Shown: positions 941 through 63,464 of the stretch, in pieces | How the letters are laid out: every line of letters starts with the position of its first letter | Numbering within the stretch: the first letter of the stretch is position 1 | NCBI GenBank assembly: GCA_000091205.1 | Contig: AP006493.2 | Length of the DNA: 64,000 nucleotides | Reading direction: 5' to 3' (one strand) | DNA from: Cyanidioschyzon merolae | Taxonomy: Eukaryota | The notes under the pieces: model-generated | Seen by the model: only the letters and a program-made list of their open reading frames with translations | Databases searched by the model: none | Told to the model about the DNA's origin: nothing | Made by a program: the position numbers and the translations under genes

Positions 941-1777
941 TCAGAGTTTATCGCTAGAAAATGGTCGCGGCATGGTTTTCCATTCATCGTTCTCAAAGGG
1001 AATCTGCAGCTCCTCGCACAGCCGCTTCCATCGATCCGTTGTACCCTCAAAAACAAACGTTACCGGAAGGACGCAAACCCCACTACCTCCGACTCGACGC
1101 AGCTGCTTCATAGCTGAGTATATCTGCGTCTTCTTCACTACCAGTCCGATGGCGTACATGCCGTGGGCGACTCCTCGAGGTGGAATCACGGTCGATATGG
1201 TCGGTCCGTCGAGGCCTCGTAGATCCGTGAACTCGCCAAGACGTCGAGCAACGTCACCAGCGCTTTCACCGCGTATGTTCGCAATGACATTGTAGTGTTG
1301 CTGCGCAGTGAAATGGGCATCCATCCGTTCGATCAGCTCTCGCACGAAATCTCGAAGACGCTCGGCAAATGGATATCGAGTTTGATCCGCTGCTAGGCGG
1401 GAACGATTGCCGATAAGTTGCATTTCCGATTGAAGTATCGTGCCGCCTGGTATTTCTTTGAGATTATTTTCTCGGAGCGTCACGCCGCTGCTGATGAGAT
1501 CAATGATGCAATCGGCGGTGCCAAGCTGGGTAGCGGCCTCTAACGCACCATCCTGGTACAGGAGTCGATAGTTCCGGATGGCGTGAGCTGCCAGGAAAAT
1601 TTCCGACTGGTTCGGGAACTTGGTCACGATGCGCAAGGGTTGTGAGCGAGATTCTGTAAAGCGGCGAAAATCTTCAATGTTGTGGATATCGGTCCAGAGA
1701 ATTGGCACTCCCAGACCCAAACGACAGATACCGAAGCCGAGACTGTCGTGGACAATGACGACATCCGTAGAAGTTCC
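941..1777 (-). CDS. hisG: ATP phosphoribosyltransferase (HisG long form), exon 2 (C-terminal 278 aa, to stop at 941)
   Basis: Translation matches HisG: DVVIVHDSLGFGICRLGLGVP (compare plant DLIIVHEALNFGDCHLS), then LRIVTKFPN, DCIIDLISSGVTLRENNLKEI and a C-terminal regulatory domain. The exon starts straight after acceptor CAG (plus 1778-1780), in frame with exon 1. The upstream part of ORF 941..1918 (MMPLGSHAMPLL...) is intronic read-through. Confidence 0.8.
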   Translation of the reverse strand, partial: GTSTDVVIVHDSLGFGICRLGLGVPILWTDIHNIEDFRRFTESRSQPLRIVTKFPNQSEIFLAAHAIRNYRLLYQDGALEAATQLGTADCIIDLISSGVTLRENNLKEIPGGTILQSEMQLIGNRSRLAADQTRYPFAERLRDFVRELIERMDAHFTAQQHYNVIANIRGESAGDVARRLGEFTDLRGLDGPTISTVIPPRGVAHGMYAIGLVVKKTQIYSAMKQLRRVGGSGVCVLPVTFVFEGTTDRWKRLCEELQIPFENDEWKTMPRPFSSDKL

Positions 1778-3086
1778 CTGAATAGTTCGAATCATGAGCA
1801 GGTTAGTTCGTGTTCTTTCTTGCGCATCCACAGCGTTGAATATCCATATGGAGCGAACAGTTGCTCTAGGTTGAGGCAACGGTAACAGCGGCATCGCATG
1901 CGATCCCAAGGGCATCAAGAGGACCGGTCACGCTCATGGAAATGGTATCTCAAGTCCAGTACAGACTGCCCGGGTAAATTGATGCATATCTCCAGGGTCT
2001 GGATACGGAGTCGATGCATCTGCATCAGATGTTCGGAGCCACGGCATCTCTAGTCCAATCCGGACCGTCCATGGCCGCGGAGACGTACCACCGGCGTATG
2101 GATCCGGAAGCGACGCAACTGCATCTGATGTTCGCAGCAGCAGCAGCAGCAGCAGCAGCAGCGCCTTTGGTCCACTGCTATCCGTTCAGGTCCCTAGAGA
2201 CATCAATCTAGGCTCTGCGTTACCAAGTCGCATGTGAGTGGGAATCGAGATACCATGAACCGTACAACGCGCGACACTCGTAGCGATCACTCGCCGCATG
2301 GCGTGTACTCGGGCAGCGACGAATCATCTCCGTTGATCCGCATTCTAGACCAGTTCATCGACAGGAGCATCTGCACCAGTAACCAACGCGCGCTCCAGTT
2401 CAAGGTATGCACCATGTCGAGCGCGTGTGCGTGCGCCGAGTCACCGCCACCAGCAAACACGCTCCACCGCACAAGACTCACTGCGTAAGAAGGCATTGTA
2501 TTCCATAACACTGCTTGATGCTTTTCGCTCTGACGCCATGGATCAAAGCTTCGAAGCTATCATGTGTCCTATCTGCGGGAGCATCTCGCACTGCATACGG
2601 AGTGATGCTTTGAGCACCTGTTCTCGCATGCAAGTGATTCAATATAGAGCAGCGTTGCTGACAGACGCAGAGCCGGACAGCACGCCCCGTCTACAAAAGC
2701 ATTTGCGCCCATCCGAGCGCTTCCACTCTTGATATCCGACTCGGGTACTGCAGCCAAAATGCACGTCACCGTTACCTCACTACAGGATCATTCTAGAGCG
2801 ATGTCGACAGGCTGGTACTCGTACCACGATCAGCTACCGCTATCTCGCCTGGTGTAGTATCCAAAGCAAAACGACTGATTGGCATGCTACGCGCCTGTCG
2901 CTTCGAGTTTCTCTGGGGATACAGCTTGAGCACCAGCGCCTCAGAGCCGAGCATGCCCATTTGCAGGCATGATCGAGTGCACAGGTGCCTCAATGAATCC
3001 CCGTAGCACACGCAGGTGCCGAGCAACCGATCATGGAGAACGTAGGTCTCGGAACTTGCTCCAGCCTACGCCTTGCACAAACTTAC
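1778..3086 (-). other. spliceosomal intron of hisG (1309 nt)
   Basis: Donor GTAAGT at minus-strand 3086..3081. Acceptor ...CGAACTAACctgctcatgattcgaactattCAG|GG ends at plus 1778. An ACTAAC branch-point-like motif lies about 30 nt upstream of the AG. Joining the exons gives DLVAEYN|GTSTDVVIVHDS, with the same spacing as plant HisG (EYGQENEDLIIVHE). A (CAG)9 microsatellite sits inside the intron. Confidence 0.7.
2135..2162. repeat. (CAG)9 microsatellite inside the hisG intron
   Basis: Direct read of the sequence: cagcagcagcagcagcagcagcagcag. Confidence 0.9.
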
Positions 3087-3548
3087 GTTATATTCCGCAA
3101 CGAGATCATAACCAGCAACCCCAATATCCAAGGTACCATCCTTAACTTTACGAACAATATCCGCTGGGCGTTGAAGCCAGAGCTCAACCTCGGGAAAGTG
3201 CTTGATGCTACCCACGTATTGGCGCGGGTTGCGCAGGTCCACTTCGAGGCCGCAGCTATTCAGCAGCTCAACCGCAGCTTGGTGGATCTCGCCTTTCGAG
3301 GGAATCGCGAGTCGAATCGAGTCACGAGCCTCCGCATCCGCACTCAAGCTCGTAGTTTCATTGCCTAGGTTAGCACTTGCAGCGACCTTGCAACTGCGAA
3401 GCTCACGAACGCCCTGCGCTCGCCGCACTCGCAGGCAGCGACGCGTTTCGCAGCTACCGCCACGGAGCCTAACACTCGTGACAATGGTGCTTATCCGTTG
3501 CCGCTCCTTGATGCTCGAGCGTGAGCACTGCACAACAAACGCCATCAC
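3087..3548 (-). CDS. hisG: ATP phosphoribosyltransferase (HisG), exon 1: about 75-aa presequence plus the N-terminal catalytic segment
   Basis: ORF 3066..3548(-) contains DSIRLAIPSKGEIHQAAVELL...WLQRPADIVRKVKDGTLDIGVAGYDLVAEYN, which is the HisG N-terminus. Directly after the AAC (Asn) codon the minus strand reads GTAAGT, a consensus 5' splice site. The N-terminus MMAFVVQCSRSSIKERQR... is S/R-rich and looks like an organellar transit peptide. The choice of start Met is uncertain. Confidence 0.7.
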
Positions 3549-3786
3549 ACTCCTTTACGAACTTAATCGACCAAGGAGGCTGCGGATCAACAAGCACAGG
3601 TTGATGACTAGTCCTATGAGCGAAGCGGGGGCGCTCGTTCGTCTCCAATGTACACGCGGCCCGGGACCGGCAGCGCTGGGCGCGCATCGCATTCGCTTCG
3701 GCCGGCTATTCGCTGGTGCAGTCGCTTCGCGAATAGCAGACCGCTTTCAAAGGCAGCAAGGGCTCCGACATCACCTGTGCAGCGTC

Positions 3787-5123
3787 AAATAAGGAGACGA
3801 CACTGCTTCCTCCAATGCTGATTTTTAAATCTTTTCCAGAGTTCCTACGCTGTACAGCACCGACGTCCGACGTGCCGCTATGAAGGATAACCGATTTGTA
3901 CGTACTACGTATCGGATGCTCGCGGTGGTTGTTTCGGATTGGTTCATTCGACGCGTCGCCGCCAGCATTCGTTACCATACGAAAATCGTGATGATTCGAA
4001 ATGGGCTCGAGAAACGCACCCTAAAATAACCGATATCAGTATCTAGTGCATACAGGCGAGCCTGCGCTATCCTCCGTGACGTATTGCGCAGGTGTTCGAA
4101 TGCTGGGCTTCGAGGCACCTCGCGGGCGCAGCGTCTCGTGCGGAGAGCTCCACGGCGAGGGAGCCTTGACGTCGTCCCTTATTGGCGTGCTCGTGAGCGC
4201 ATGCCAAAAGCCCGCTCAACCTGTCACGTCAAGTTATCGAGGCCGTCCAAAATTCATCGCCGCCTCGGTTTGTGGTCATCGACGGCATGGCGTGCAGCAA
4301 CCGCTTGATAACGGTTGCGGGAAACGATCCCCAGAGGCTCCCTTGACTTCTGACTGCAGCGGAGAACGCGTATTGGACGCACACTCGAGTCGCCGCAGCG
4401 CTCGCTTCGAGTGCAGCGCGCGTCACCGCTTTGCGAGACGAAAGCGCATTCCGTCCGAGAGTTCTCGGCTTGATCTCCAGCCCGGGGACTTCCCTCTGGC
4501 TCTTGCTCCATCGAAGCGAGCAACGCCTCTCGCAAGCTCCCTATCGAACCTGTGAGCAAACGCGTGCGACAGCAGCGGGCAGAGTGAGTACTCGCCGAGT
4601 GGATCACCCGCACGGAGCCTGTGATCGCTGGGTACACCACCAGCCCCGGTAGCAGAGGAGCGCATCGACGGGAGCCTTCCTGTATCGGTCCATGGCATGC
4701 GCTGAGCAATGGGGCAAGCGCTCGTGAACCAGAGCGTCGCCCGTCGGACAAGACGGGGGCCTCGACGGACATAGCTGCACCTCTGACAGCAGCCCCAAAT
4801 CAGAGTTGCATTGAGCGCACCGGGGCTGTCTCCAGGAAGCAATGGAAACTGCGAGCGAAGCGCGAATCACAGCATTCGCTCGCTCATGGTCTGCTCCGAT
4901 AGCAGCCGGAGGCATCGAAATCGGGACTCGCACGCACTGCCATCAGCATCCTTCGACTGCTGAAGAGAGGCATGGTGGGAAATGAGCGACCGGCGTATTT
5001 GAACCTGGAGATAAGCGAGAGGCGAAGGAAGCACTCGGAGATAGAGCCAGCCACGTCCTATGCTGCCTACTGTGGGAACAGACCAAACCTTTGTCGTGCA
5101 TGAACGAGTCAGAGGATTCGTCC
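3787..5123 (+). repeat. Direct repeat family A, copy 1 (about 1.34 kb)
   Basis: Near-identical (about 99%) to 9972..11308. Every ORF in this span (4046..4555, 4254..4772, 4423..4842, 4604..4933 and others) recurs 6185 bp downstream with 0-3 amino-acid differences. The ORFs overlap on both strands and match no known protein, so the repeat is probably non-coding. Confidence 0.9.
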
Positions 5124-9971: not shown

Positions 9972-11308
9972 TGTATGGAAGACGACACTGCTTCCTCCAA
10001 TGCTGCTTTTTAAATCTTTTCCAGAGTTCCTACGCTGTACAGCACCGACGTCCGACGTGCCACTATGAAGGATAACCGATTTGTACGTACTACGTATCGG
10101 ATGCTCGCGGTGGTTGTTTCGGATTGGTTCATTCGACGCGTCGCCGCCAGCATTCGTTACCATACGAAAATCGTGATGATTCGAAATGGGCTCGAGAAAC
10201 GCACCCTAAAATAATCGATATCAGTATCCAATGCATACAGGCGAGCCTGCGCTATCCTCCGTGACGTATTGCGCAGGTGTTCGATTGCTGGGCTTCGAGG
10301 CACCTCGCGGGTGCAGCGTCTCGTGCGCAGAGCTCCACGGCGAGGGAGCCTTGACGTCGTCCCTTATTGGCGTGCTCGTGAGCGCATGCCAAAAGCCCGC
10401 TCAACCTGTCACGTCAAGTTATCGAGGCCGTCCAAAATTCATCGCCGCCTCGGTTTGTGGTCATCGACGGCATGGCGTGCAGCAACCGCTTGATAACGGT
10501 TGCGGGAAACGATCCCCAGAGGCTCCCTTGACTTCTGACTGCAGCGGAGAACGCGTATTGGACGCACACTCGAGTCGTCGCAGCGATCGCTTCGAGTGCA
10601 GCGCGCGTCACCGCTTTGCGAGACGAAAGCGCATTCCGTCCGAGAGTTCTCGGCTTGATCTCCAGCCCGGGGACTTCCCTCTGGCTCTTGCTCCATCGAA
10701 GCGAGCAACGCCTCTCGCAAGCTCCCTATCGAACCTGTGAGCAAACGCGTGCGACAGCAGCGGGCAGAGTGAGTACTCGCCGAGTGGATCACCCGCACGG
10801 AGCCTGTGATCGCTGGGTACACCACCAGCCCCGGTAGCAGAGGAGCGCATCGACGGGAGCCTTCCTGTATCGGTCCATGGCATGCGCTGAGCAATGGGGC
10901 AAGCGCTCGTGAACCAGAGCGTCGCCCGTCGGACAAGACGGGGGCCTCGACGGACATAGCTGCACCTCTGACAGCAGCCCCAAATCAGAGTTGCATTGAG
11001 CGCACCGGGGCTGTCTCCAGGAAGCAATGGAAACTGCGAGCGAAGCGCGAATCACAGCATTCGCTCGCTCATGGTCTGCTCCGATAGCAGCCGGAGGCAT
11101 CGAAATCGGGACTCGCACGCACTGCCATCAGCATCCTTCGACTGCTGAAGAGAGGCATGGTGGGAAATGAGCGACCGGCGTATTTGAACCTGGAGATAAG
11201 CGAGAGGCGAAGGAAGCACTCGGAGATAGAGCCAGCCACGTCCTATGCTGCCTACTGTGGGAACAGACCAAACCTTTGTCGTGTATGAACGAGTCAGAGG
11301 ATTCCGTC
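9972..11308 (+). repeat. Direct repeat family A, copy 2
   Basis: See copy 1. Both boundaries start at gGACGACACTGCTTCC and end at ...GAGTCAGAGGATTC. Confidence 0.9.
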
Positions 11309-12854
11309 AATGGTATTATGACTTGCATGTATGCGTGCATGCAAATAGTCTGATACCAGAGAAGCCGCCATCTTCTCTCTCTAAGTGCGACGACGCTCCG
11401 CTCATTTCTAGAGCAGAATACCCGTCAGGAATGGATGCTCGACCGATCTCGCGATAATCCAGGTGCTGCACCTCTGTCGGGCTCACGCATATGCTTCTAA
11501 TGCAGGCACAGGGCAGCGACTGAAGCGCTTCGCCAGACGCTGGTTGTGCGCTTGCCAGGTCACGCACACTCGTCTCATACGGTGCGAACTCCATGCATTC
11601 ATCGAGCTTTCCCCGGTGTACCCAAATGCTGCTGGTGGCCACACAAGAGACCTCGGGTTCACCATGAGCGTTTCAACGTGTCTCGCACTCCATACTGGTG
11701 CTCTCCTCGGAATTCGAGCTGAGATGTATCCTGTGAGGATTCAGTTGCGGCACCTTACGCGACCACCGATGAATACCTGGTGCTTGCGTAATGCCGTGTG
11801 CGGGCGCTGACACGAACTGCAGTATGCTTCTGTGCGAGGCCAGCATGTGCCGTATTCCTGGAATCCAACAGGATGCGTAGCCAGGATACACTCATGTGCT
11901 ATGCTTTCGTGCCGAAAAGCTTCCCATCGTATATGTGTACCGCTCGCAGTGCCGATCACAAGCGCAGTGCTGTGGCGACAAGGGATCAAACATCGTGCCG
12001 TACTGTCGCGGTTTCGCCTCTGATGTGAACGGCGTTTCCGACTCAACGAGCCGCCGCCAGTCTCCCGTGAGCCGCTGCCTTTCTTCATGCGGTCGAGAGC
12101 CAGTCGCGATCAAGGCTCTTTGCGTACATCGAGGCAATGCCTGATTCTTTTGCAAAAATGCAGTGTGTCGATGACATGCTGGGGCTTCCAACCGCCACCT
12201 ACCGCGTCGGTGTCTGAGTATGTATGTGGTCAGTGATGCAGAAAACGCTCTGCGACACTAGAGCGTAATGATACATACACTTACAGACGCCTCCAGTCCT
12301 TCTTTGACCCGCTGACTGCTATAGATTTTGTTTTATCCAGGCAGAGAACGACCCTGAGAGGCTGCCACACCAAGTCGCATAGCGACAGCTTCCCGGTTCT
12401 CGCCTCGAGCAGTACACTTTACATGATATGGATGGCGGCGTTGATGTCCCGGTTCACGTACTCCTTGCGTTTATTGCCTGGAGTGGAACTCGCCTTTGCA
12501 AGGATTGTTTGACCTCGTGCACTCTGCGCCACTACAAGCTCATCATTATCCTGCCGTGCTGGCACCGTTTCTCGCCTATCTCCTCTCTCTTTTTCTTCGT
12601 CTCCTTCGCTCGATCATCGGTGAGAAGAGGATTTTTCCGTTTTTGTCGAACCCGGCGATGACGGGCATCTAGGATCTTCCACTTCTATGCCCATCGCTTT
12701 CCCTTAGACTTTATATTTCTTCAAATGAACGTACATCGAACCCATCTACTATAAACCGTGAAAAAGCAGTTGGTTACTGTATTCTAGAGGTGGAACACCA
12801 TTGCGTTGAAAGACTAAACGTTAGCCGTCAGGCACTTTCAGTTGAGCGCGCGCG

Positions 12855-15095
12855 TTGCACTCGAACGAATCTTATTCCATTTTAGGTAGCTGCAGCTGCT
12901 GCGGTATCTGTGCAGGCTTTAGAAGCCCGAAGTCCACAAAGGTTTATCAAGGAATGTTGAGGAAAGTGCGCGAAGAGCTTGCATACGATCAAGCGCTGTT
13001 CGCACTGCAGGCTTGGCAGAGCGGGTCCCGCTGGTGGCAGCGCGCTTCTGCAACGCCTTTTACGGAGTGTTCGCGGTGGCCCGGCGGGGGAACGTCGCAC
13101 GCTGGGCAAGCCGCCGTCAAAGTCCGCAAAAGACAGAGAATCTCTGTGCCAAAGTGGCAATGTGCAGCAAAGCGCTCCGTTGAACACGTTTGTCGTGAGT
13201 GTGGCCACACGGAGGCCCGGCGCTACGGGCGTTGTCCGTGCTGCCAGAGCTGGGACAGCATGGTGGAACAGCCTCGCAGGCGGCGTGAAGCTGGCGGTTT
13301 ACAACGCCCACGCGACGATTTCGCCAACCAAAGAAGACACAAGCTCTGGAGCGGTGATGCAAATCTTTGGTCTGGTGACAGCGACCAGCTCAATGACTGG
13401 TTGCAGGGCGCGGGCACCGCGCCGTTGCCACTTGGTATCCTACGGCGCGGGCTAGGTCCAGGAACTGAACACAAGGTTGCGAAGGCGTCCGCATTGGACG
13501 GCAGTTCGAGCGGTAATGCATCGGGGAAGCTTCCGCACGCTGCATCCATGGAATCTAACAGAGCGCAACCAGTTGAGGTTCACAGGTTACTGACCTGCTC
13601 GGCCGAGTTTAATCGAGTGACTGGCGGAGGCATTGTTCCTGGTTCACTGCTCCTGATCGGCGGGGAGCCCGGCAACGGAAAGAGCACTCTTCTGTTGCAG
13701 ATTGCAGGTGATGTGGCCAGCAGCGGCTGCCGCGTCCTCTATGTTTCTGCGGAGGAATCTGTAGAACAGGTAAGTTCGCGTGCCGCCCGTTTGTTTGGAC
13801 TCATGGAACCCCGTCAAGAGGAATCGACGGAAAGGCGTCAAAGCCTCGAGAGAAATCTTCTCATCATGCACGAGGCCTGCTTGGAGGATATTCTCGACAT
13901 TGTTGAAGAGATCCAGGCGGGGCGAGAAAACGCTCCACCAAACAGCGCTCCAAGAGCGACAACGGCGAGCGCATCGACAACACCTACGGCGACTGTGCCC
14001 AGCACAGGTGCTCCGTCGAAAGCAGTCGGCGCTGGACGCAAAGACGCCTCCACGGTGGACAACACTGATGCCCAGTCGCCGCTGGGGTTGCTCATTATCG
14101 ATTCCATTCAGACTGTGTATACGCAGGAGAATGAGCAAGAATCAGCAGCCCCGGGCAGTATCGTGCAGGTGCGGCACTGCACGAACCGTCTGCTTGGACT
14201 CGCAAAGCGGCAACAACAACGGCTAAGAGAGCCGTGGCAGCGCACTGCGATTATGCTGATTGGTCACGTCACCAAATCAGGTGACTTGGCTGGACCCAAA
14301 CTGCTCGAGCACATGGTCGACGTGGTCCTCTACCTCGAATCTGAGCAGGGTCTCTTCCAGCATCGCATTCTGCGCTGTACAAAAAACCGCTTCGGACCGA
14401 CGGATATCGGCATCTTTGATCTCACCTCACGGGGTCTCGTAGATGTTCCGAATCCAAGCCTGCTGTACTTCCAGGCTGCCGAGTCGAGTCTGATGCATGA
14501 CAGTGATGGAGCCGCGAAAGCGCCGAACAACCCATTCCACACCTACGCCCGTGAATCCACTGACGGCACCGCATTCTCCATGGTCGTCGATGGAACCCGC
14601 GCTTTCCTCGTCGAAATCCAGGCCTTGGTTGCAAAGACCTCGCTCACCCAGCCCCGTCGGACGAGCAACGGTTTCGATCTTTCTCGTCTTTACGTTATTC
14701 TGGCGGTTTTATCAAAACGAGCTCGACTGCGACTCGAGACACACGATGTCTATATGAACGTGGTAGGTGGAGCCCGCATCCAAGACCCCGCTGCAGATAT
14801 GGCGGCAGCGGTGGCACTTGCATCCTCATTACTCGCGAGGGCGCCTCGGCCGGATACAGCATTCATTGGAGAGCTCGGCCTGCAGGGTGAAGTTCGCCCG
14901 GTACCCCGTCTCGACCTGCGTCTACGGGATATCGCGCGACTCGGATTCCGCTTCTGTGTTTGCAGCGATCGTTTGAGTTCAAGACAGGAGACTGCTGCTC
15001 GGGAGACGGGCCTCCAAGTCATTCGATGCCGTACTATTTCCCAGGTGCTGCAATTCGGCATTCCCGAAGAGATAGCACCCACGGAGCAGCACTGA
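12855..15095 (+). CDS. radA: DNA repair protein RadA/Sms (bacterial type; zinc finger, RecA-like ATPase, Lon-like C-terminal domain)
   Basis: C4 zinc finger CRECGHTEARRYGRCPCCQSW. Walker A FNRVTGGGIVPGSLLLIGGEPGNGKSTLLLQ. KNRFG motif RCTKNRFGPTDIGIFDL. Lon-like domain VVGGARIQDPAADMAAAVALASS. A low-complexity insertion lies between Walker A and LLIIDSIQ. The N-terminal roughly 100 aa may be a targeting sequence; the start codon is uncertain. Confidence 0.85.
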   Translation: MHSNESYSILGSCSCCGICAGFRSPKSTKVYQGMLRKVREELAYDQALFALQAWQSGSRWWQRASATPFTECSRWPGGGTSHAGQAAVKVRKRQRISVPKWQCAAKRSVEHVCRECGHTEARRYGRCPCCQSWDSMVEQPRRRREAGGLQRPRDDFANQRRHKLWSGDANLWSGDSDQLNDWLQGAGTAPLPLGILRRGLGPGTEHKVAKASALDGSSSGNASGKLPHAASMESNRAQPVEVHRLLTCSAEFNRVTGGGIVPGSLLLIGGEPGNGKSTLLLQIAGDVASSGCRVLYVSAEESVEQVSSRAARLFGLMEPRQEESTERRQSLERNLLIMHEACLEDILDIVEEIQAGRENAPPNSAPRATTASASTTPTATVPSTGAPSKAVGAGRKDASTVDNTDAQSPLGLLIIDSIQTVYTQENEQESAAPGSIVQVRHCTNRLLGLAKRQQQRLREPWQRTAIMLIGHVTKSGDLAGPKLLEHMVDVVLYLESEQGLFQHRILRCTKNRFGPTDIGIFDLTSRGLVDVPNPSLLYFQAAESSLMHDSDGAAKAPNNPFHTYARESTDGTAFSMVVDGTRAFLVEIQALVAKTSLTQPRRTSNGFDLSRLYVILAVLSKRARLRLETHDVYMNVVGGARIQDPAADMAAAVALASSLLARAPRPDTAFIGELGLQGEVRPVPRLDLRLRDIARLGFRFCVCSDRLSSRQETAARETGLQVIRCRTISQVLQFGIPEEIAPTEQH

Positions 15096-21185: not shown

Positions 21186-22500
21186 GTGACACCCCCGCTG
21201 AATTTATTCGAATGCCTTCTCGCAGCGTATAGATATGGAGATAGAGACCAGGACGCAGTGTACCGTGCAGATCGTAGACGAATTGCCTTTGGAATATATT
21301 GTTTACTGAATGGCGCAAGCAGGACTGTATTTCTACCTCAGGTCAGTCATAACTCAGTGCGCAGATGTTTGGTGAACACTAAAAGAAGCAAGTACTGGCG
21401 CTCCGCGCCGCACACGAACACTCTTGAAGACTGCTTGCGATCAACGGTAGAAATCAACACGTTGATCAGCTTACGGAAGGCAAAAGCGATGCTTGTAGTC
21501 GCCACGGGCGTCTCTCCTTCTAGTCAGCTTGTTCGTATTTTCCTAGAAACTCTGGGATCCATTCGCCAAGGAAAGAGTCATTGTTCACGAACGGCTCTTT
21601 TCCACCGAAATCGCAACGAAAGCGTTCCTGGAATGCCGCGATGATTATAAAATACAGGAACGTCAGTTTGTTTTTTAGTCGATGTGACTTGCCTCGGATG
21701 AAACAGTCCTTGCGTATATCGATATTCGCGGAGCAGGGCCCCCATGCTACGTACTATCGAACTCGTAGAGAACGGGGAAATCATGTGTTCCCGCTGCATT
21801 GGATTCATTTGGCGGCCGCAATTACGCTCACGGAAAAAGCCTATAGAACAACACCAAGCACTTCGTCGAATCATGGAATACTTTTCCCATGATGTCTGGC
21901 GACGTCCTTCTAGTGGCCAACATGGTATTTCACGATCCCTGTTGCGTTCGAGCTTTTGCCGATTCTATCTTGGAAAAGAGCTACTTTTCATCCCGGCGTA
22001 CTTTTCGAGCTTGAACCGTATCTGAAGGGGTGTATTCTCTCGAGAACCGTAACGATTGCCCCAGGAGGCGAATCGTTCAAGCGCTCAGCACACGGTTATA
22101 CCGGGACGCATGTCGTCTTTCTTCCGCAAATCCCTCTTCCTCCAGAAAGGCCCTCACCTAAGGGTATAAAGAAGTGCGTTGCGATTAGAAAAATTAAGGC
22201 ATGAGCTCGATTATACGCTTCAGAAAGTCGAGATACGGAGAAGGCGAAGAAGGGCCCGGTAGATAAAAAATGCATATCGCAGACAGAGCGATAAATAGCA
22301 GAGAGGGCACGAGTTCGAGGAATCCTCGCACTTTCAGCTCAAACAGAGGCACAGAACGCATGGCATTCATGAACCGAGACTTTAACGCCGCCATCAGTAT
22401 CAGGAGTTGCGCAAGGCTGAAGAAGAGGCCCCAGGAGCTGAAGCTGTCTAACTTTGTGATGCAGCCTCTTCGACTCTCGAAGTTGACAAAGAGAAGCTGA
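21186..22500 (+). mobile_element. Decayed TnpB/Fanzor-like (IS605 OrfB-type RuvC nuclease) element, copy 1
   Basis: C-terminal RuvC-III signature MAFMNRDFNAAISIRSCA at 22360..22401. An upstream zinc-ribbon-like segment reads TIELVENGEIMCSRCIGF. It sits in a lower-GC island. The reading frame is interrupted, so it is not a clean single ORF. Confidence 0.4.
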
Positions 22501-22799
22501 AGCCGATGGCGGGCGGCCGGTCCAAAAACGCTGGGAGGCGTCTGCGTATGGGTATTCATTTACCCTCCAAGGTCGTAGTACATTTAATGTTTCACGGACA
22601 TGTGCAGTTTCCGTCCGTGCTGCAGACTGGTGCAGCTTCCCGCCACCTGCCCCATGCTGGAAAGCATTCGTTACGCTGCGACGCGCCAGCCGCGCAGCGT
22701 CGCCGGATATTCCAGAGCCGCCGCGACCTCGCGCTTGAGAGCGCACGTTCCGTTAGAAACGGGGTTTTTCGTTTTGGAGCGGGTGCAGAGGCCGTAGTC

Positions 22800-41500: not shown

Positions 41501-41871
41501 CTAGATAATGTCAAAAGATTGGTTAGTATCACGTTCTTGTTTCACGTAACGAAATGTGGGTGCGCTCCGACACAGTCAGAGCCTCGCGACCTTCGAAAAG
41601 GGTTCCACTCTGCCTGCTCTAGCGCGCATCCGATGGATTCTCCGTGAGCTGGCCGGCTCGATATCATCGAGCGACCACGAGGCGACACAGCACGTGCCGG
41701 CCGGTGGCAGCCGACTCACGCTTCTCATCCGAGCGAGAAGCAACATCTTATTCTCCGAAGCGGTACCAGCGGTGCAGGTGGCAAATGCGTGAAAGAAACG
41801 CACACCCCACCGCACTCTCTATGCCGAAGTTGCTTCGGTTGCCACCAGCGAAAATAAATTTCACAACTTAC
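41501..41871 (-). other. spliceosomal intron of MPPA (371 nt)
   Basis: Donor CTAG|GTAAGT (minus strand, plus 41871..41866). Branch point TACTAAC about 25 nt upstream of acceptor ...ttttgacattatctAG|GC. Splicing restores ...AYQGNTL-G-LPLFMNEKRRKKLTPEVVKRFL, collinear with alpha-MPP (..LANPLLAPES..). Confidence 0.75.
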
Positions 41872-42670: not shown

Positions 42671-42869
42671 AGGTTACTACACGCACCCTCGTTCAGCACT
42701 CGAGGGGTACTTGCTTTTCGAACGCGCCGCTTCTGTAACGCGCTACGAACGCGGCTGCTCAAGCGCGGTGTATCGCCCAGTGCGGCGGCATCGAAGGGCG
42801 CCTCAGCGGCGTCATCGGCTACTGGAATGGTGAGCACATCACAGGGTCTCTTTCTTTTAGTCTTTCAAC

Positions 42870-43145
42870 ACAATTACGTTCCACGTCCAGGTGTGTATCA
42901 TTAGCTGCTTTTACCCGGGTTATAGCAGATGCGTTCAAAGTGCGTTCATTGGAAGAAATAAAAAGTCCAAGGGAATGGGACGGGTACATAAGTCGAGGCT
43001 TTTGGAGGCATAGAGTCACGGCTGCTGGACAAAAAAACGAATAAAATCTTGTTGTCGCTTACTTTCTAACAGATACGAGCACGTGACGACGAAAGAGAAG
43101 AAGCAGATGCGAGATAGGTGAGAAAACGTGTACGCGCCCGACGGG
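42870..43145 (+). repeat. Dispersed repeat family B, copy 1 (about 80% identical to 48425..48725)
   Basis: caattacgttccacgtccaggtgtgtatcattagctgcttttacccgggttatagcagatgcgttcaaagtgcgttcattggaagaaataaaaagtc aligns to 48437..48545. Spurious ORFs on the minus strand share ISSNERTLN..A...DTHLD.E.NCV. Copy 1 lies just upstream of the MPPA start, next to a Fanzor-like relic. Confidence 0.65.
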
Positions 43146-43149
43146 ACAA

Positions 43150-43330
43150 TGACGAGACCGCAGTGGCCCGTCGGGCACGAGTTCGATGAACCCCTACAGA
43201 GGCGAGTTCCACCAGAGGCAATAAAAGCATGGCGTTCGTGAAGCGATACTTGAACGCTGCGCTCAGTATGAGACGATATGGTGTGCTGGAGACGATATGC
43301 GCGGAGCTGAACCGTTCTAACTATGCAGGG
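43150..43330 (+). mobile_element. TnpB/Fanzor-like relic, copy 3 (C-terminal fragment only)
   Basis: MAFVKRYLNAALSMRRYGVLET at 43229..43295. Its DNA is about 70-75% identical to the RuvC-III motif regions at 22351 and 31497. The RDxNAA site is mutated to RYLNAA. Confidence 0.35.
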
Positions 43331-43663
43331 GCAGCTTCTGCTACTCGAATTGTACCTGGATGAGCTGAAACCGATACCAGCCGGCCGGGTCAAAAAGGCT
43401 GGCAGGCATCTGTGACTGTGTGTGTATCTAGAAACTCTATGGTCGCCGAACTTTTTCCGTCTTACTTCGAATCATATTACTCGGGCGTTAACGACTCCCG
43501 GAGAACCCGGGACGCTGCAGTATCCGATCGTCTACCTGTATGTCTATGACTCTATCCGAGATTGAGAGTGCGGGTAGGAGCTGAGGTCTACCCCGACGGT
43601 TATTGGCAGCACTCGTGTGTCGGGCGAACTCTGTACCGAGTCGTCGCTCACATGCCATGGGTG

Positions 43664-43690
43664 TGTGTGTGTGTGGGTGTGTGGAGTGAA
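43664..43690. repeat. (GT)n microsatellite
   Basis: Direct read: gtgtgtgtgtgtgtgggtgtgtgg. Confidence 0.85.
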
Positions 43691-45000
43691 CGCTTTAACA
43701 TTCGGGACGCAGTTGGATCTCATAGCCTGCATTTGTATGTGGGTAGGATCTAAACCAAGTCTTCTCACAGTTTTCCTAGCAGTACTCGTGTTTCGGGCGG
43801 AGTCTAGATCGATTCGTCGCTCATATATCGTAGAGGGGTGCGACGGACGCTTCAGCGCTTGTCTCGCGAACTAGCAGAATACGAAGACCTGGCATGAGTG
43901 GAGAATCTCACCCAATAACGTTGCAAATGCCCACGGTGGCACACACTTACATAGAGTACTTGATAGGATCCCTTTTCCAGTATTTTTTTTTGTATCTTGG
44001 AACAGCAGCTCAAGTTCCATACAGGAGCGGCCTCTTCGTAAAAGCCGCACACGAAACAGCTTGCCCGAGGTCAGATCATGTCATCGGTCCTGCCGAGTTC
44101 ACTTGTGCGATATGTCGGAAAGGTGCTGCTGAGGAGACACTGCGAGCTCTGATCGCGCCCAGGAGAGAAGCGTGAAGGACGCTCTTCGAGGGCAGGCACG
44201 CGGCGACTTGTCAGAGCACTGGTCGATGCGCACTCGCATCAGCCATGCTGGAAGTTTTCTTTTCCGGATAAATTGCGCATAGTATGCAAGCTCGATTCGT
44301 TTCCGTCTATGAAGAGTCTTTCTTCTTCGATGCAAATGTGAGCGCGGCACCGGCAATGCTCAAATTGTCCTCGATCATGCGTACTCAAGGCGGTGTGCCT
44401 GAATTCCTGCTTTTTCGAGTGCATTCGGAGGTCCATCAGCGTTTCGTGTTTGTCGGTACAGACGCATGCCAGAGGTGCAATCGGAGCCGGCGCCGAATCC
44501 GTCGAGAAGCTGCACTTGACGGGCTTGCACTACTGAGTAGCTTTTTGACGCTGCAGCCTCAAGAAATCGATGCTACAGCCCACATACGTCGAGGGCCGCA
44601 TACGCGCTGTATTCTCGACGAGTCCGCGTTAAAAGCGCACACACCTTGGCGTTACGCTCAATAGCTGGTCAGCTGCCTCGCTCTGCGCAGTAGTGTACGT
44701 GAGCGGGGCTCTGGAATGGGCCGCATCTCTGCAACTGAGGCATTCAACACGAAAATGCACCCGTCGGCCGCTGGGGAGCATGACCGGGCGGCTTCAGACC
44801 TCGAATCGATCATTCGATTATCCCCTGAAAGGGTGCTTTCTTTACCCGTAAAGCTGCCTGCTTTCCCTATCCGTTTGGGAGGTTTTTCCCCGAATGCAAG
44901 TACCTCATCCTCAAATGCCACGTGAGAGGCCCAGGTCTCGCGGCATGCCACCGCGGAGTCGCTCGCTGCTGCACATTCTCCGTCGGCCAGGACGCGCCCT

Positions 45001-45618
45001 CTAGCGCTTCTCGAACTCCTGTCGTAAGACTTCGCTCTCCCGAGCCGCCTCGCGCGCCTCTTCCTTCAGCACTTTCGACTCCTTCTCTAATATTTCGTCC
45101 TCCTTCTTTTTATACTCTGGCTCACGTTCCACACGAGGGGTCCGGTACACTTCCTTCTCAGCAGGGTCCGGGTTTTCGTAGAGCTCCTCCTCGTACTTCA
45201 GGCCGCTGACGTACTTGTCGAGCTCCTTCTCGTCATCAATTTTCGGAGCTTCTTCTCCTTTGTCCGTAGGCTTCTCACGTATCTTTGCGATGCTTGGGGA
45301 CGTGCCTGGAATGACCGTCGCGAGCAGGCCTCCCAAAATGATGTGCGCCCCTGCACGGAGTAGCGAACGGCGGTCTGGATCCGGTACCCTAACTTGCATA
45401 CGAATAGGACACTTTGAGCCATTCCAGTGTTTAGGTGCACTCTTCACAATAGCTCCATGACTTACAAACATGATGTTACGTTCTCGCAGATAAAAAACGT
45501 GCAGGTTCCAGGCCCGTGTCCCACGCGAGTCCCCAAGGGTACAAGTGGATCTCGCGACGGCGTGCGCATCGCCCTCGCGCGCTCGCGGATCCACGCGCAG
45601 CGCCTCCGCGAAGGCCAT
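45001..45618 (-). CDS. Hypothetical protein: N-terminal MAF presequence, one TM helix (GAHIILGGLLATVIPG), K/E-rich C-terminal tail
   Basis: ORF with a charged coiled tail (KYVSGLKYEEELYENPDPAEKEVYRTPRVEREPEYKKKEDEILEKESKVLKEEAREAARESEVLRQEFEKR). No confident family assignment. An alternative start is the internal Met at 45399. Confidence 0.4.
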   Translation of the reverse strand: MAFAEALRVDPRAREGDAHAVARSTCTLGDSRGTRAWNLHVFYLRERNIMFVSHGAIVKSAPKHWNGSKCPIRMQVRVPDPDRRSLLRAGAHIILGGLLATVIPGTSPSIAKIREKPTDKGEEAPKIDDEKELDKYVSGLKYEEELYENPDPAEKEVYRTPRVEREPEYKKKEDEILEKESKVLKEEAREAARESEVLRQEFEKR

Positions 45619-46433: not shown

Positions 46434-47225
46434 ATGGCATTTGTGAACGTTGCAAACACGCGCATCAACAGACTTGATTCGCTGGGGTACAGGCACCGCA
46501 GTTGGTCGCACGCGTTTCCGCAGCGCCGTGCGTGGAGTCGTGCCAGTACACGTCGTGCACAGTGCGAGGCGTCACTGGTTGCTCTGAAACCGTATACGTC
46601 ATACCACCTGGCGCGTTGGTTGGCCAAAGAGTGGGACAACTACGACCAGCACTTGGCAAATCCGCCGTTTTGGGCGCACATCAGGGTGAGTTACCGGCCC
46701 CTACCCTGGGAATTTTTGGAAGGCCACGCCTTTTACGTGGAATCGATTTACACCTATGCACCGAAGCTTCCGTATCGGGCGACTATTATCAAAATCACGC
46801 GAAATAGCGACGGTGCGTTGGAAACGGAGTCCTACAAAGTCGAAGGCGTTGAACAGTTCTACACGGCTGCTTTCGATCGCAGCAAGCTCGCAGAGCTCGT
46901 TCGACAGGCGCATCCCCGGCACACCAATCGATGCGTGAAATTGCCGGAAGCATGCAATGCCGTCTTCGAATGGGTCGAAGCCGAACAGCTGTACCGATGC
47001 AAAACTCGACCTGGATGCAAGTGCATGGTACGACGTGGTGATCGCGACAGCTATCTCGATGCACAAATGACGCTCTCGGAGTCGCGCTGCACGGCACTGG
47101 ATATCGGCCGTTGCCCACAAACGCATGAACAGCTCTGGGGGGCGGTGGCAGGGCCGTTCGATTTTGTGGTGCGAAAGTCGTGGAGCGACGAGGTGCCGCT
47201 GCCACCGGCTGCCATGGACTGGTGA
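46434..47225 (+). CDS. cpcT: CpcT/CpeT-type phycobilin lyase (DUF1001)
   Basis: YHLARWLAKEWDNYDQHLANPPFWAHIRVSYRPLPWEFLEGHAFYVESIYTYAPKLPYRATIIKI matches the CpcT signature (W-L-A-G-x-W/F-x-N..Q...NP..FAHIrV..RPL). The N-terminus MAFVNVANTRINRLDSLGYRHRSWS looks like a plastid transit peptide. Confidence 0.8.
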   Translation: MAFVNVANTRINRLDSLGYRHRSWSHAFPQRRAWSRASTRRAQCEASLVALKPYTSYHLARWLAKEWDNYDQHLANPPFWAHIRVSYRPLPWEFLEGHAFYVESIYTYAPKLPYRATIIKITRNSDGALETESYKVEGVEQFYTAAFDRSKLAELVRQAHPRHTNRCVKLPEACNAVFEWVEAEQLYRCKTRPGCKCMVRRGDRDSYLDAQMTLSESRCTALDIGRCPQTHEQLWGAVAGPFDFVVRKSWSDEVPLPPAAMDW

Positions 47226-48424
47226 ATCGGTCACGAGTAAAGCAAGCTGCTTCGTAAAACATAACGTCCAAGGTTGTTGGATTGCATTGCAAAAGATGGA
47301 TCGTGGTTTCTGTTGAATTCGTGACGGGAATCGTGCCCGAGGATTTGGATGCGTGGGCGAGCATCAGTAGCGGCGAGTGTGCCGCTACCGCTCGAGGTAT
47401 TGATTTGCTGGCGTTCTCACGAACAGCATCAGAGGCTCGCCTCAAAGGGCGCTGCCGATGATAAAACGCTGGACGCCATTGTTCGCTCGGCGGGTCGCCA
47501 CGGCCAGTAGATAACGACGAGCGCAACGCGTACGCTAGTGACTGCATAAAGTCGCTCTCGCAGCACAGTTGCGCTCCTCCGGCAAATTGGCACGCTGTTC
47601 TCGTTGCTCTCATATCGCGTCAACCAGGACGGTAGAGGCGATTTGCTGCGCAAATAGCGGGTTTCAGTTCTCCATCGAAACCACCCGAACGGGAACCGGG
47701 TCACAACCGAATGGCCTGCAGAGTCAACTTCTGCTCCTTCCTGGACATGACATATCGGTTTGCACTGGACAGCAACGACTTGAGTTAGATTCGTGCCTCT
47801 TTGCGTTCTCAGCTGCCATCGCATACCAACAAACAGCGCACCACGATTCGTGCGCATCAAACCGGCATGTCGCTCGATGCTCGGGCGGAAAACCTCCCGC
47901 ATGGAGCGCAGCCGCATCCTCGTCAGGTATCAGCAGCATGAATGCGCGTAGTAAGCAACTTGAGGCGCTGCATGCACCCAGCTGTCCACAGTATGCACCA
48001 TGACATCGAATCGTGAACGGTGCCGGAGCGCTGCATCGGGCTAGCTATCCTGCGAGTACTCGATTGTCGCCATAGACCAGAGCGCCAGCCATGGTAACCC
48101 GGCGCATGCGCCTTCTTGCCTACAGCGCTAAACGATTCTTCTCTTCGATCACAGAGCTGGAGTCGCTCCTACCGCTTAGACTCCCCGGGTATCGAGCGTA
48201 TGAGTTGCGCCTGCCGCGTCGTCGACTACGCAAGTCCATACGCAGCACGCCAGGGAATTGGCCCTTGAAGGCTCGTATAAACGACACATGATTTTGAGAG
48301 AAGAAGCATGGATGATCGTGACTGGTGAAACCACGAAATCTGGTGCAGCACGCAACGCTACGAGACCACCACCACGATCACGACAATTATCGAGATGACC
48401 TGCAACCGACAGCGCGTTTCACGT

Positions 48425-48725
48425 ATGGTCTTCCAACGCAATTGGATTCCGCGTCCAGGTGCGTGTCGTCAACTGCTTTTCCCCAGTTAATAGCAAATGT
48501 GTTGAGGGTGCGTTCATTTGAAGAAATAGAACCTAAGAGAAAGGTACAGGTATAAAAGTCAATAATCCTGGAGGGTCGGTGTCGGCGGGATCGACCAAAA
48601 AAGAAGAGAATGCTCTTTTTGCCGACCATCGAGCGAAGAACATCAAGAAACGACGACGACGACGATGACGAAGAAGAAGCAGCAGCAGCAGCAGCGCGGT
48701 GATAGATGAGAAACGGTGCTTAGCC
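48425..48725 (+). repeat. Dispersed repeat family B, copy 2
   Basis: See copy 1. Followed by a (GAC)n/(GCA)n trinucleotide tract at 48640..48700. It lies about 300 bp upstream of the giant gene start. Confidence 0.65.
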
Positions 48726-58418: not shown

Positions 58419-59432
58419 TCATTCGGACTTGCTGTTCAGAACAGAGGTGGCTTGCGAACTCGGAGGTCGCTCCGCTGGAATCGCTGCAGATGCGGATCCA
58501 GGAACAACGGGGCCCGCTTGATGGACAAGGAGTCCTCGTTCCGTGGATAGGCTGAGAGAGCTTTTGGTGCTACCATTTAAACCACCACCACCACCACCAC
58601 CACCACCACCACCCAAGGCCCGCATGATGCCCAGAATGAGCATCACCGCTGTGCCGGCAGCGCCAATGACCCACTTGATCACGCGGTTCTCGATTCGCTC
58701 CAACTCGGTGTAGATCTGAGCCATGAACGTTTCGACTTTCTTTTCCACGAGCTGGAGATCACTTCTCAATACAGCAAAGTCTGCTTTTTCAAGGATTTGC
58801 ATCTCGCTCTTGAGAGCTGAGAACTCGGCCTTGGTGGCAACCACCTCGGTGTTATAGGCCAGCGCATCTGCGATGATCTGTGAGAGCGCACTCGATAGCG
58901 CTTCTGCTTGTTTAGGTGTAAACTCTGATGCTTCAAATACTCTGACAAGCTTCAAGGTATCGAAAGCGATCCGTTGTCCAGCTGGAGCGCGCTGCTCGCC
59001 GCAAGCGCGGAACCTCCGCACGTCCACGGGCGCTCGTAAGCGCCCCGCAACAACAAGAGGCAGCAGGCCTGCGGCTGTTGGTAAAGTGCCTGGAACCCCT
59101 TTTCTACAGGTTTGCTGTTGCAGCAGCTGCAGCGAGAGCAGAGGTGAACCTGCCCGTCCGAGTGACCAGGCACTTGGCAAGAGCGTACGCCAGGTACCGC
59201 CCATGAGGACGACAAACCGGGACCGGGTGGAACGCAAACGTACCGGCGTTGGCGAAGCGCGGCTTCTGGTGCGCTTTCCACCACGCGTCCTGGATACACC
59301 TGTGTCGGCGGACAGAGTCGAGTGCACTGGATAGAAGCTGTGTCGGTATGTTTGGATTGTTGGTGATTGTGGTGAACGGCGGGCTTTGCGGGTAGTTCTA
59401 CGAGTTGTTGCTTTTTTATCGACGGTTTTCAA
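58419..59432 (-). CDS. DUF1640 / CCDC90 (MCUR1)-family coiled-coil protein with a C-terminal TM helix
   Basis: FDTLKLVRVFEASEFTPKQAEALSSALSQIIADAL...coiled coil...IKWVIGAAGTAVMLILGIMRALGG matches DUF1640 (FDThalvkrLeasGFt.eQAeai...). Gly11 tract encoded by (CCA)n at 58581..58614. Basic S/R/T-rich N-terminal presequence. Confidence 0.6.
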   Translation of the reverse strand: MKTVDKKATTRRTTRKARRSPQSPTIQTYRHSFYPVHSTLSADTGVSRTRGGKRTRSRASPTPVRLRSTRSRFVVLMGGTWRTLLPSAWSLGRAGSPLLSLQLLQQQTCRKGVPGTLPTAAGLLPLVVAGRLRAPVDVRRFRACGEQRAPAGQRIAFDTLKLVRVFEASEFTPKQAEALSSALSQIIADALAYNTEVVATKAEFSALKSEMQILEKADFAVLRSDLQLVEKKVETFMAQIYTELERIENRVIKWVIGAAGTAVMLILGIMRALGGGGGGGGGGGLNGSTKSSLSLSTERGLLVHQAGPVVPGSASAAIPAERPPSSQATSVLNSKSE

Positions 59433-59451
59433 TACGCCGCTATCTCCGTAG

Positions 59452-59991
59452 TCCCTTGTTCTGATGCCAGCAGTGGACAGGTACGAACGATGGCAGCGAT
59501 ACCCAAGTGCCGATTGCTCTGCTTCCGGTGCTTATCGACGACGCATTCAATGGACCGGCAAAAGATGCGACCCGTGCTGCACTTGCCGTTCCCCATGTCC
59601 TATGCATCAAGCCTTGACGTACCGTTCGCAGTGCCGGCACTTGACTGCTTGCAGGGATTTTCATGCGTCTAGTACATGTCTCATTCTCCGCCGAGGCCTA
59701 CCCTGCGGTGCTCCAAGCCTGGCTACAGAGCGCTCCACTCGATACCCGCGTTCGATTTTCGCACCCAGTGCAGTGTCCTAGGAGCACGCGCTTCTTCCAG
59801 GCGATGCTCTCAGCGAGTACGCGATCCGCTGCATACGCAAGCGCATACTCTGGTAATCGATCGGGGGTTTGCGGACTCCGATGCCGTCCCTGATGACGAA
59901 ACGATCACAGCAACGAAAACAATGCAGCAAGTTGAGAAGTATCGATGCATCGAGGCTCCCGCAGTGCAACGCGGTGACGTACGCTCCACTC
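59452..59991 (+). repeat. Direct repeat family C, copy 1 (at least 540 bp; copy 2 runs off the end of the window)
   Basis: About 99% identical to 63465..64000 (offset 4009 bp). ORFs 59464..59781 / 63353..63790, 59490..59672 / 63499..63681 and 59663..59893 / 63672..63902 are identical or differ by one residue. No protein homology. Unrelated in sequence to family A. Confidence 0.9.
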
Positions 59992-62974: not shown

Positions 62975-63464
62975 GGGACGCTACGGGCGCTCGGAAAGCT
63001 TGTTCGAGAAACGCACCCAGTCCAAGAGAGCCGACAGAGGCTCGTACCCGCCCGCTACCAGCCCTACCGCCCGCAACGCTGAGCTTGTCGGAAAACTGCC
63101 AAAGACCGTCGACTGCATGACGCAGCGGTGTCATGGGAACGTGGACTGGATACGATTGCGGAGCTTCTGGTATTCGTTCGGGTCAACGGGGACGATGGAC
63201 TTGAGGATCTGTAGAGTAGATTGAAGGAAGCCCAACTCGAGCGACGGGAGAGTCCAGCATCCTTGCACCGTACTGGTCGCTGTCTCGCAGACTCTTTGAT
63301 AAACTCATGCGATATTAGCGCAGGATAAAACGGGTGCACTTGGGTAACTCGGGTGTACAGACTCCAGTTTGGGCTCTCTTTGCTCTGTCATAGACAGAAG
63401 CTTATGCAGGACGTTGCTTCTCCGGTATCCTCGTCTTCAAATACGACGGTATCTGGGGTGCCTT

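Follow-up and report, generated by a model that had tools for sequence, protein, structure and literature searches.

The question raised by this 64,000-nucleotide stretch of Cyanidioschyzon merolae DNA (hereafter the window; contig AP006493.2, assembly GCA_000091205.1) is whether a phenylalanine (Phe) lying directly behind the first residues of several of its proteins marks them as plastid precursors. An initial annotation, made from the letters alone, had read MAF-type starts on the histidine biosynthesis enzyme HisG, on the phycobilin lyase CpcT and on a lysine/glutamate (K/E)-rich protein, and had guessed from these N-termini that the organism was a red alga or a glaucophyte and that the three proteins were plastid-targeted. 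The corresponding open reading frames (ORFs) were all present at positions 3087-3548, 46434 and 45618. An annotation look-up matched every long ORF of the window to C. merolae 10D proteins, 17 of them following one another in the annotation (BAM80595-BAM80611, 17/17 exact), whose locus tags CMK252C to CMK267C place the window on chromosome 11. The host is a rhodophyte with a primary plastid, one of the lineages in which Phe-motif transit peptides occur, and the guess at the organism was thus borne out by the identity of all 17 proteins.

Taken as a whole, the initial observation was partly confirmed and its interpretation (kind of organism and plastid targeting) was supported. HisG and CpcT are, with good confidence, predicted to carry Phe-motif transit peptides that would direct them to the stroma. 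The K/E-rich protein, CMK262C, would carry the same signal from a start reading MFV, followed by a signal for twin-arginine translocation (Tat), the MAF at 45618 most probably being accidental. At the sequence level, the predicted presequences of HisG, CpcT and CMK262C display all the traits of rhodophyte and glaucophyte Phe-motif transit peptides. Plastid targeting of the three is suggested by their basic extensions, by conservation of Phe in relatives and by protein function.

Presequence character was judged by simple composition counts, and the comparison set for early Phe consisted of the 17 annotated window proteins together with orthologues. The latter came from a related Cyanidiales genome whose CpcT is 84% identical (L005), from Cyanidium caldarium (L007) and from two Cyanidiales relatives (L008 and L009). 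Further evidence came from cDNA-like contigs of JGI samples (L010-L018), among which a cDNA nature was directly seen only in the spliced L011. Because L011 is spliced, at least one JGI sample in the collection has cDNA-derived sequence.

The HisG gene is organised as follows, with the evidence in brackets.

941..1777, minus strand: HisG exon 2 through the stop codon (sequence, Pfam, exact NCBI match).
1778..3086, minus strand: HisG intron of 1309 nucleotides (nt), GTAAGT...ACTAACC...CAG (sequence, spliced product, L011, Cyanidiales consensus).
3087..3545, minus strand: exon 1 of HisG, ATP phosphoribosyltransferase, XP_005536631.1 (sequence, Pfam HisG, exact NCBI match, spliced contig L011).
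3318..3545, minus strand: region coding for the predicted HisG transit peptide, residues 1-76, Phe at position 3 (composition, orthologue alignment).
3546..3548, minus strand: GTG codon ahead of the real HisG start, source of the false first M in MMAF (sequence).
3546..3640, minus strand: HisG 5' untranslated region in L011, 95 nt, with no ATG (spliced contig).

The N-terminal ORF of HisG (3066..3548, minus strand) reads TAA-AGG-AGT-GTG-ATG-GCG-TTT on the minus strand, with an in-frame TAA at 3557-3555, four codons before the ATG. In a eukaryote, translation begins at this ATG (3545-3543) and yields MAFVVQCSRSS. Of the MMAF initially proposed, MAF is therefore real; the M ahead of it is a GTG, which serves as a start only under the bacterial code. 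Translation of the spliced gene was exactly the annotated 431-amino-acid (aa) XP_005536631.1 ("ATP phosphoribosyl transferase"), and position 3087, where the initial annotation had set the boundary, turned out to be the final base of exon 1, directly before GTAAGT. The ACTAACC element sits 21 nt ahead of the CAG acceptor, the intron signals fit the Cyanidiales consensus GUAAGU / ACUAACC / AG, and the intron position was kept in L008 (about 1.0 kb) and L009 (about 0.3 kb). In L011 (2138 nt, from a JGI sample) the intron was removed at exactly the predicted junctions. Since the 95-nt leader of this contig has no ATG, the ATG of MAF is the first one of the HisG message, and a check against transcript evidence, as had been proposed at the outset, thus spoke for this start, as did the annotation. 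No further in-frame methionine (Met) was found in C. merolae HisG ahead of its domain, which starts at residue 77 (IRLAIPSKG; Pfam HisG), TIGR00070 matching residues 77-275.

Two other readings of the 5' part of this gene were rejected. The "MM" cannot be two Met codons, the codons being GTG-ATG, and the N-terminal ORF is no separate gene, as the spliced contig and the annotation both join exon 1 to exon 2. As for the intron itself, it carries a (CTG)9 run near 2140-2170, and an Rfam scan of the whole window, this 1.3-kb intron included, brought no family to threshold.

The N-terminal extension of HisG comprises 76 aa ahead of the bacterial-type domain, with 15 lysines and arginines against 7 aspartates and glutamates (net charge +8) and 21% serine and threonine (11% in the mature part). 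Among Cyanidiales, the HisG starts were MAFVVQCSRSS (C. merolae), MAFLLSMLVTS (L008) and MTFVSNVQAPN (L009, its start taken as the last Met ahead of the domain). When the three were aligned, M1 and F3 were invariant and were the sole invariant positions near the N-terminus; the approximately 70 other presequence columns held just five further invariant positions. This conservation extended to the red lineage at large. HisG started with MAFITG in Porphyra, MAAFVTP in Porphyridium and MCAAFQ in Gracilaria, and other starts were MAFVAA, MAFVSG, MLTAFQ, MSYAFQ, MFAFQV and similar. Early Phe was present in every retrieved full-length red-lineage HisG precursor with a presequence (positions 3-7, position 9 in Galdieria); it was absent from three green-algal HisG precursors (Micractinium conductrix, M. 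tetrahymenae and Picochlorum). The Galdieria and Porphyridium proteins carry the label "chloroplastic" from their sources. In plants and algae, histidine is made in the plastid.

CpcT, the second protein, is encoded on the other strand.

46434..47225, plus strand: CpcT/CpeT-family phycobilin lyase CMK263C, 263 aa, start MAFVNVANTR (sequence, Pfam CpeT, exact annotation match).
46434..46598, plus strand: region coding for the predicted CpcT transit peptide, approximately residues 1-55, Phe at position 3 (composition, start of a relative).

The start MAFVNVANTR initially read at 46434 equals that of the annotated protein, to which the ORF was 100% identical over 263 residues. Two open codons precede the ATG and a stop lies three codons upstream. 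No other in-frame Met occurs ahead of the CpeT domain of CMK263C, and together with the upstream stop this forces the start. CpcT attaches bilin to phycocyanin beta, a plastid protein. The CpeT domain covers residues 59-244, so that the extension counts 58 aa ahead of the domain and reaches about 43 aa beyond the N-terminus of cyanobacterial CpcT (204 aa), which is without it; like the part of HisG ahead of residue 77, it is missing from bacterial homologues. Residues 1-55 contain 10 lysines and arginines against 2 aspartates and glutamates (net charge +8), with 16% serine and threonine (10% in the mature part). In the HisG and CpcT presequences, the first acidic residue stands at position 14 or 15, and both are net positive, rich in serine and threonine and poor in acidic residues. 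The CpcT start of C. merolae, MAFVNV, compares with MLPFVASTG in the 84%-identical relative L005. CMK263C has been listed as the C. merolae homologue of CpcT/CpeT (PMC2408579). Searched by locus tag for localisation data, the literature returned CMK263C only in that table of CpcT/CpeT homologues, and a look-up of CMK243C-CMK248C returned nothing on HisG.

The third protein, CMK262C, differs from the initial reading in the position of its start. The features concerned are given below.

45001..45471, minus strand: CMK262C (XP_005536643.1), 156 aa, start MFVSHGAIV, K/E-rich C-terminal part, no Pfam or NCBIfam family (annotation).
45286..45471, minus strand: predicted bipartite presequence of CMK262C, residues 1-62, with MFV, C-P-I-R-M-Q, twin arginine RRSLL, a hydrophobic stretch and S-I-A (family alignment, profile matches).
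45472..45618, minus strand: in-frame stretch upstream of CMK262C beginning ATG-GCC-TTC (MAFAEAL...), the third MAF of the initial annotation; unannotated, unconserved, acidic and outside the contigs.
45509..45531, minus strand: inferred 5' end of the CMK262C mRNA (eight contigs begin to match the window here).

The ORF 45001..45618 (minus strand) can be read from MAFAEALRVDPR as a 205-aa protein, and use of the upstream ATG would give a CMK262C isoform starting with MAF. This ATG is in frame and in a strong context (gccATGg), no stop separates it from the annotated start, and prokaryote-type gene callers reported the 205-aa product on 23 metagenome contigs. They were the only ones to do so: the longer form is missing from the curated annotation, where CMK262C starts 49 codons downstream of 45618, at the internal ATG 45471. 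The extension was likewise absent from both orthologues, which start with MFIGSSV (L005) and MFVTSFAL (C. caldarium). In each of these the Met is the first ATG of the ORF, and of the open codons above it (1 in L005 and 25 in C. caldarium) none is an ATG. The 49 residues of the MAFAEAL stretch include six acidic ones, among them E5, D10, E15 and D17, and only 10% serine and threonine. The claim that each start is followed by basic sequence rich in serine, arginine and threonine therefore held for HisG and CpcT and failed for this acidic stretch.

Contig evidence pointed in the same direction. Eight contigs from eight JGI samples (L010 and L012-L018) were 99% identical to the window only from 45509-45531 downwards, and each had a different, unrelated sequence upstream of the match. 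As a shared boundary with eight different foreign partners is the pattern expected of chimeric assembly at a transcript end, we infer an mRNA 5' end near 45527, i.e. about 56 nt upstream of ATG 45471 and about 90 nt downstream of ATG 45618. In all likelihood the stretch 45472..45618 is not translated, and its 5' part, which holds the ATG, is not transcribed either. Annotation, orthologue starts and the eight cDNA-like contigs all speak against the MAF at 45618 as a protein N-terminus, and a 205-aa isoform appears improbable. What remained of the early-Phe signal initially reported on this protein is the Phe at position 2 of the annotated start (MFV). At true N-termini, early Phe was accordingly found as F3 in HisG, F3 in CpcT and F2 in CMK262C, and the MAF at 45618 falls outside this set.

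Some further observations concern the CMK262C transcript. Its start (45460-45471, minus strand) reads ATG-TTT-GTA-AGT, which places the 5' splice-site hexamer GTAAGT right behind the second codon; it is presumably unused as a splice site, since the orthologues are collinear (MFVS / MFIG / MFVT). The cDNA-like contigs ran about 1.3 kb beyond the stop codon to 43676-43683, an end shared by four of the eight, and the resulting 3' region (43676-45000, minus strand) is unusually long for a compact genome. On the other strand, an ORF of 126 codons that is absent from the annotation (44284..44664, plus strand) overlaps this region. One chimeric partner fused to the transcript (P0011) encodes a protein starting with MAFVCYPLFTSAKF and continuing into a hydrophobic, Gly/Pro-rich body; lying outside the window, it is another MAF precursor-like N-terminus from the same samples.

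From its annotated start, CMK262C displays MFV, about 30 basic residues and then D-R-R-S-L-L-R-A-G-A-H-I-I-L-G-G-L-L-A-T-V-I-P-G-T-S-P-S-I-A, i.e. a twin arginine, a hydrophobic core and a cleavage motif with short side chains, as in Tat signals. In an alignment of nine family members, F2 was among only eight invariant columns; one arginine of the pair was invariant and the RR pair was present in 8/9. Six of the nine have Phe at positions 3-5 and three begin with MAF, the other starts of the family being MAFVGG, MAFIGS, MAFVSG, MWAAFV, MACSFV and MVGFVN. In HisG, CpcT and CMK262C alike, the motif was kept while the rest of the presequence drifted, the CpcT of C. caldarium being ambiguous (see below).

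PsbU, PsbQ' and Psb31-type proteins are located at the lumenal face of photosystem II. When the CMK262C-family profile was compared with the PDB, it matched such proteins, and only through the presequence: PsbU, a Psb31-domain protein and PsbQ' of Porphyridium purpureum (7y5e; E = 1.5e-5, 3.2e-5 and 3.3e-4, respectively) and PsbU of C. caldarium (4yuu; E = 3.8e-3). The matched precursors all show M-A-F-V/I ... V/I-R-M-S/Q ... S-R-R-x-x-L, so that the resemblance to known lumenal proteins is one of presequences only. In the precursors of these red-algal extrinsic proteins, the part aligned with the profile ran from residue 1 to approximately residue 63-83, with M-A-F-V/I separated by about 20 residues from V/I-R-M-S/Q, and the latter by about 8 from S-R-R-x-x-L and a hydrophobic stretch; CMK262C of C. 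merolae departs from this layout in starting with MFV, without alanine. The V/I-R-M-S/Q element common to the CMK262C, PsbU, PsbQ' and Psb31 precursors could mark where precursors of lumenal proteins are processed in the stroma of red algae. For the mature K/E-rich part, no match was found in Pfam, NCBIfam or the PDB. The family counts just 11 cluster representatives among 1.84 billion proteins and has the core K-Y-E-E-E-L-x-x-N-P-D-P-A-E. Judging from its presequence, CMK262C is very probably targeted to the plastid and on to the thylakoid lumen, and is probably routed there by the Tat pathway. A tentative proposal is that these proteins form an uncharacterised thylakoid-lumen family restricted to the red lineage, with a probably helical K/E-rich C-terminus behind a Phe-motif transit peptide and a Tat signal.

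Arg-rich extensions with a net positive charge are also typical of mitochondrial presequences, and the extensions of HisG, CpcT and CMK262C might then not be plastid transit peptides but presequences for mitochondrial or dual targeting. The window itself offers an example in favour of this, since its mitochondrial MPP-alpha starts with MLSF. Its F4 was not conserved, the two relatives displaying MLTLLR and MYVAAM, in contrast to the conserved Phe of the three candidates. Moreover, phycocyanin, the substrate of CpcT, is plastidial, and the CMK262C presequence has a twin-arginine signal and matches those of lumenal photosystem II proteins. In red algae, Phe has been described as separating plastid from mitochondrial cargo (PMC7038456, PMC12531127). 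A mitochondrial or dual destination is therefore quite improbable. The F4 of MPP-alpha was separately considered as a sign of plastid targeting and was ruled out, being unconserved on a protein annotated as mitochondrial.

As to chance, the word ATGGCNTTY was counted 6 times over the two strands, where shuffles gave 4.3 +/- 2.0, and was thus not enriched as DNA. Two of these occurrences (22360 and 43229) open ORFs of 44-46 codons that lie within copies of a dispersed repeat, and another (20615) opens an ORF of 8 codons. Among other ORFs of the window with an ATG and at least 30 codons, 1/511 starts with MAF. By comparison, 2/17 annotated proteins do so (P = 0.003-0.006 at an assumed per-protein rate of 0.5-0.66%), and these two, HisG and CpcT, are the ones with an independently predicted plastid function. 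As the word is not enriched while 2/17 proteins start with MAF, the signal lies in placement and not in word frequency. Controls without early Phe were the TPT transporter (MTTPPR / MATLTR / MATPTV in three species), CMK265C and CMK267C. That MA- is merely the commonest eukaryotic N-terminus (Met removal, N-acetylation) and the Phe behind it a coincidence with no targeting role would agree with the chance rate of the word, the accidental MAF at 45618, the mini-ORFs lying in repeats and the three other annotated window proteins starting with MA- without Phe, but is hardly credible in view of the exact placement on two predicted plastid proteins, the Phe kept in orthologues with otherwise unalignable presequences and the split between red- and green-lineage HisG precursors.

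Several observations weigh against Phe-motif transit peptides on HisG, CpcT and CMK262C, or limit what the motif can tell. The HisG presequence is not free of acidic residues: it has 7, one at position 14 and the others from residue 33 on. CpcT of C. caldarium (L007, 9785-10672) is annotated from MDAVSPG as a protein of 223 aa without the extension, which leaves its start ambiguous; its ORF runs 72 codons above the annotated start, includes MAVWSGGGGGRSR and offers MAVWSGGG, and the annotation probably sets the start too far downstream. The MLSF of the mitochondrial MPP-alpha shows that early Phe is not specific. In the membrane-anchored short-chain dehydrogenase (SDR), F or W occurs close to the start in each of the three species, within the hydrophobic anchor, and an early aromatic residue alone is for this reason not diagnostic. 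Finally, RadA and a TIGR03492-like protein are bacterial-type and have no early Phe, which means that the motif is not universal or that these proteins have another destination. RadA (12954-15095, plus strand) starts with MLRKVREELAYD and has a long N-terminal extension; the TIGR03492 protein, related to lipid-A-disaccharide synthase (60992-62974, minus strand), starts with MSPHRTLEGH and has about 200 extra N-terminal residues.

The Phe motif and its distribution are already known, as is some of the machinery that recognises it in C. merolae. N-terminal Phe is characteristic of rhodophyte and glaucophyte transit peptides (PMC2222254, PMC4510345, PMC7038456) and, according to Patron and Waller (2007) as cited in PMC4510345, occurs in 85% of known rhodophyte ones. 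A sequence logo displays it for Porphyridium, and its loss in green plants has been discussed (PMC7038456). In Cyanophora, Phe is needed for import into cyanelles and was linked to an Omp85-type channel (PMC2222254), and many precursors begin with MAFV, MAFT or MAAF (Table 1 of PMC4510345). For C. merolae, Baek et al. (2022) underlined the Phe of the pApcC and pNDH transit peptides as "characteristic of Rhodophyta Tps". There, the transit peptide was bound by the cytosolic GTPases PTF1 and PTF3, with import via a Tic20-centred complex; a deletion of transit-peptide residues 2-13 was assayed, and the transit peptide was needed for PTF1/PTF3 binding (PMC9407449). Hirata et al. (2024), dealing with mitochondrial presequences of C. 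merolae, mentioned neither phenylalanine nor transit peptides (PMC11298712).

By analogy with these systems, a common route can be proposed for the three proteins. HisG, CpcT and CMK262C would be nucleus-encoded and their precursors made on cytosolic ribosomes, with a transit peptide which, in HisG and CpcT, would consist of M-A-F and a basic, hydroxylated stretch with few acidic residues. The Phe-bearing N-terminus may be recognised at the chloroplast surface, where the PTF1-3 GTPases would bind the transit peptide as they do in C. merolae; in the glaucophyte model, Phe would be read by an Omp85/Toc75-type channel. The precursor would then cross the envelope via the Tic20-centred complex and its transit peptide would be cleaved in the stroma, CMK262C presumably being exported afterwards by the Tat pathway.

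The known systems resemble these proteins to different degrees. The ApcC (CMO250C) and NDH (CMM178C) transit peptides of C. merolae itself, which bear the characteristic Phe, have been used in experiments, whereas those of HisG, CpcT and CMK262C are known from their sequences. With the F-based transit peptides of Cyanophora paradoxa, HisG and CpcT share an identical MAFV followed by a basic, hydroxylated presequence. Yet C. merolae, as a rhodophyte, has no peptidoglycan wall to cross, and its presequences are more Arg-rich and show no Pro/Ala-rich continuation. The ASAFAP-type motif of diatoms and cryptophytes likewise has an aromatic residue, mostly Phe, at the first transit-peptide-like position and is held to be inherited from the red-algal motif (PMC7038456). 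It differs in that its Phe follows a cleaved endoplasmic reticulum signal peptide, whereas the C. merolae Phe follows the initiator Met, with no signal peptide.

The finding of the motif on HisG, CpcT and CMK262C does not advance an open question. Its use is rather diagnostic: where proteins of cyanobacterial function bear an early Phe behind the initiator Met and then a basic extension, the DNA can be recognised as nuclear DNA of a red alga or glaucophyte, and the products are marked as plastid-targeted. A second lesson concerns start codons: an ORF list made with the bacterial code added a false GTG-derived M to HisG, and an in-frame upstream ATG may mimic the motif by accident. Both problems were resolved by orthologue starts and cDNA-derived contigs.

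Other features of the window touch the same genes or their neighbours. A second spliceosomal intron of 371 nt was found in MPP-alpha (41501-41871, minus strand), which makes two in 64 kb with that of HisG; for the whole C. merolae genome only about 27-38 introns have been reported. Both display GTAAGT, ACTAACC and AG, both are included in NCBI gene models, and their positions are conserved in Cyanidiales. The MPP gene is split in L005, and in C. caldarium an annotated span of 2,035 bp for 538 aa implies an intron.

A direct repeat of 1325 bp with 99.2% identity (3795-5119 and 9980-11304) flanks the SDR and TPT genes; in each copy, ORFs some 170 codons long overlap one another on the two strands. 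HisG, SDR and TPT are adjacent without this element in L008 and L009 (336 bp between SDR and HisG in L008), and because these two genomes lack it between the same genes, it appears to be a dispersed or duplicated element specific to C. merolae. A second repeat of 563 bp with 97% identity (59431-59991 and 63440-64000) flanks the TIGR03492-like gene, its second copy reaching the end of the window. Finally, an intergenic repeat family with 67-76% identity occurs at 22305-22544 and 43173-43412, and also at 12241-12818, 42856-43457 and 48421-48650. Two of its copies carry short ORFs starting with MAF (MAFMNRDFNAAISIR and MAFVKRYLNAALSMR), whose stretch RD-x-NAA-x-(N/S)-I resembles the last RuvC motif of TnpB/Fanzor-type transposon nucleases, of which these ORFs may be decayed relics.

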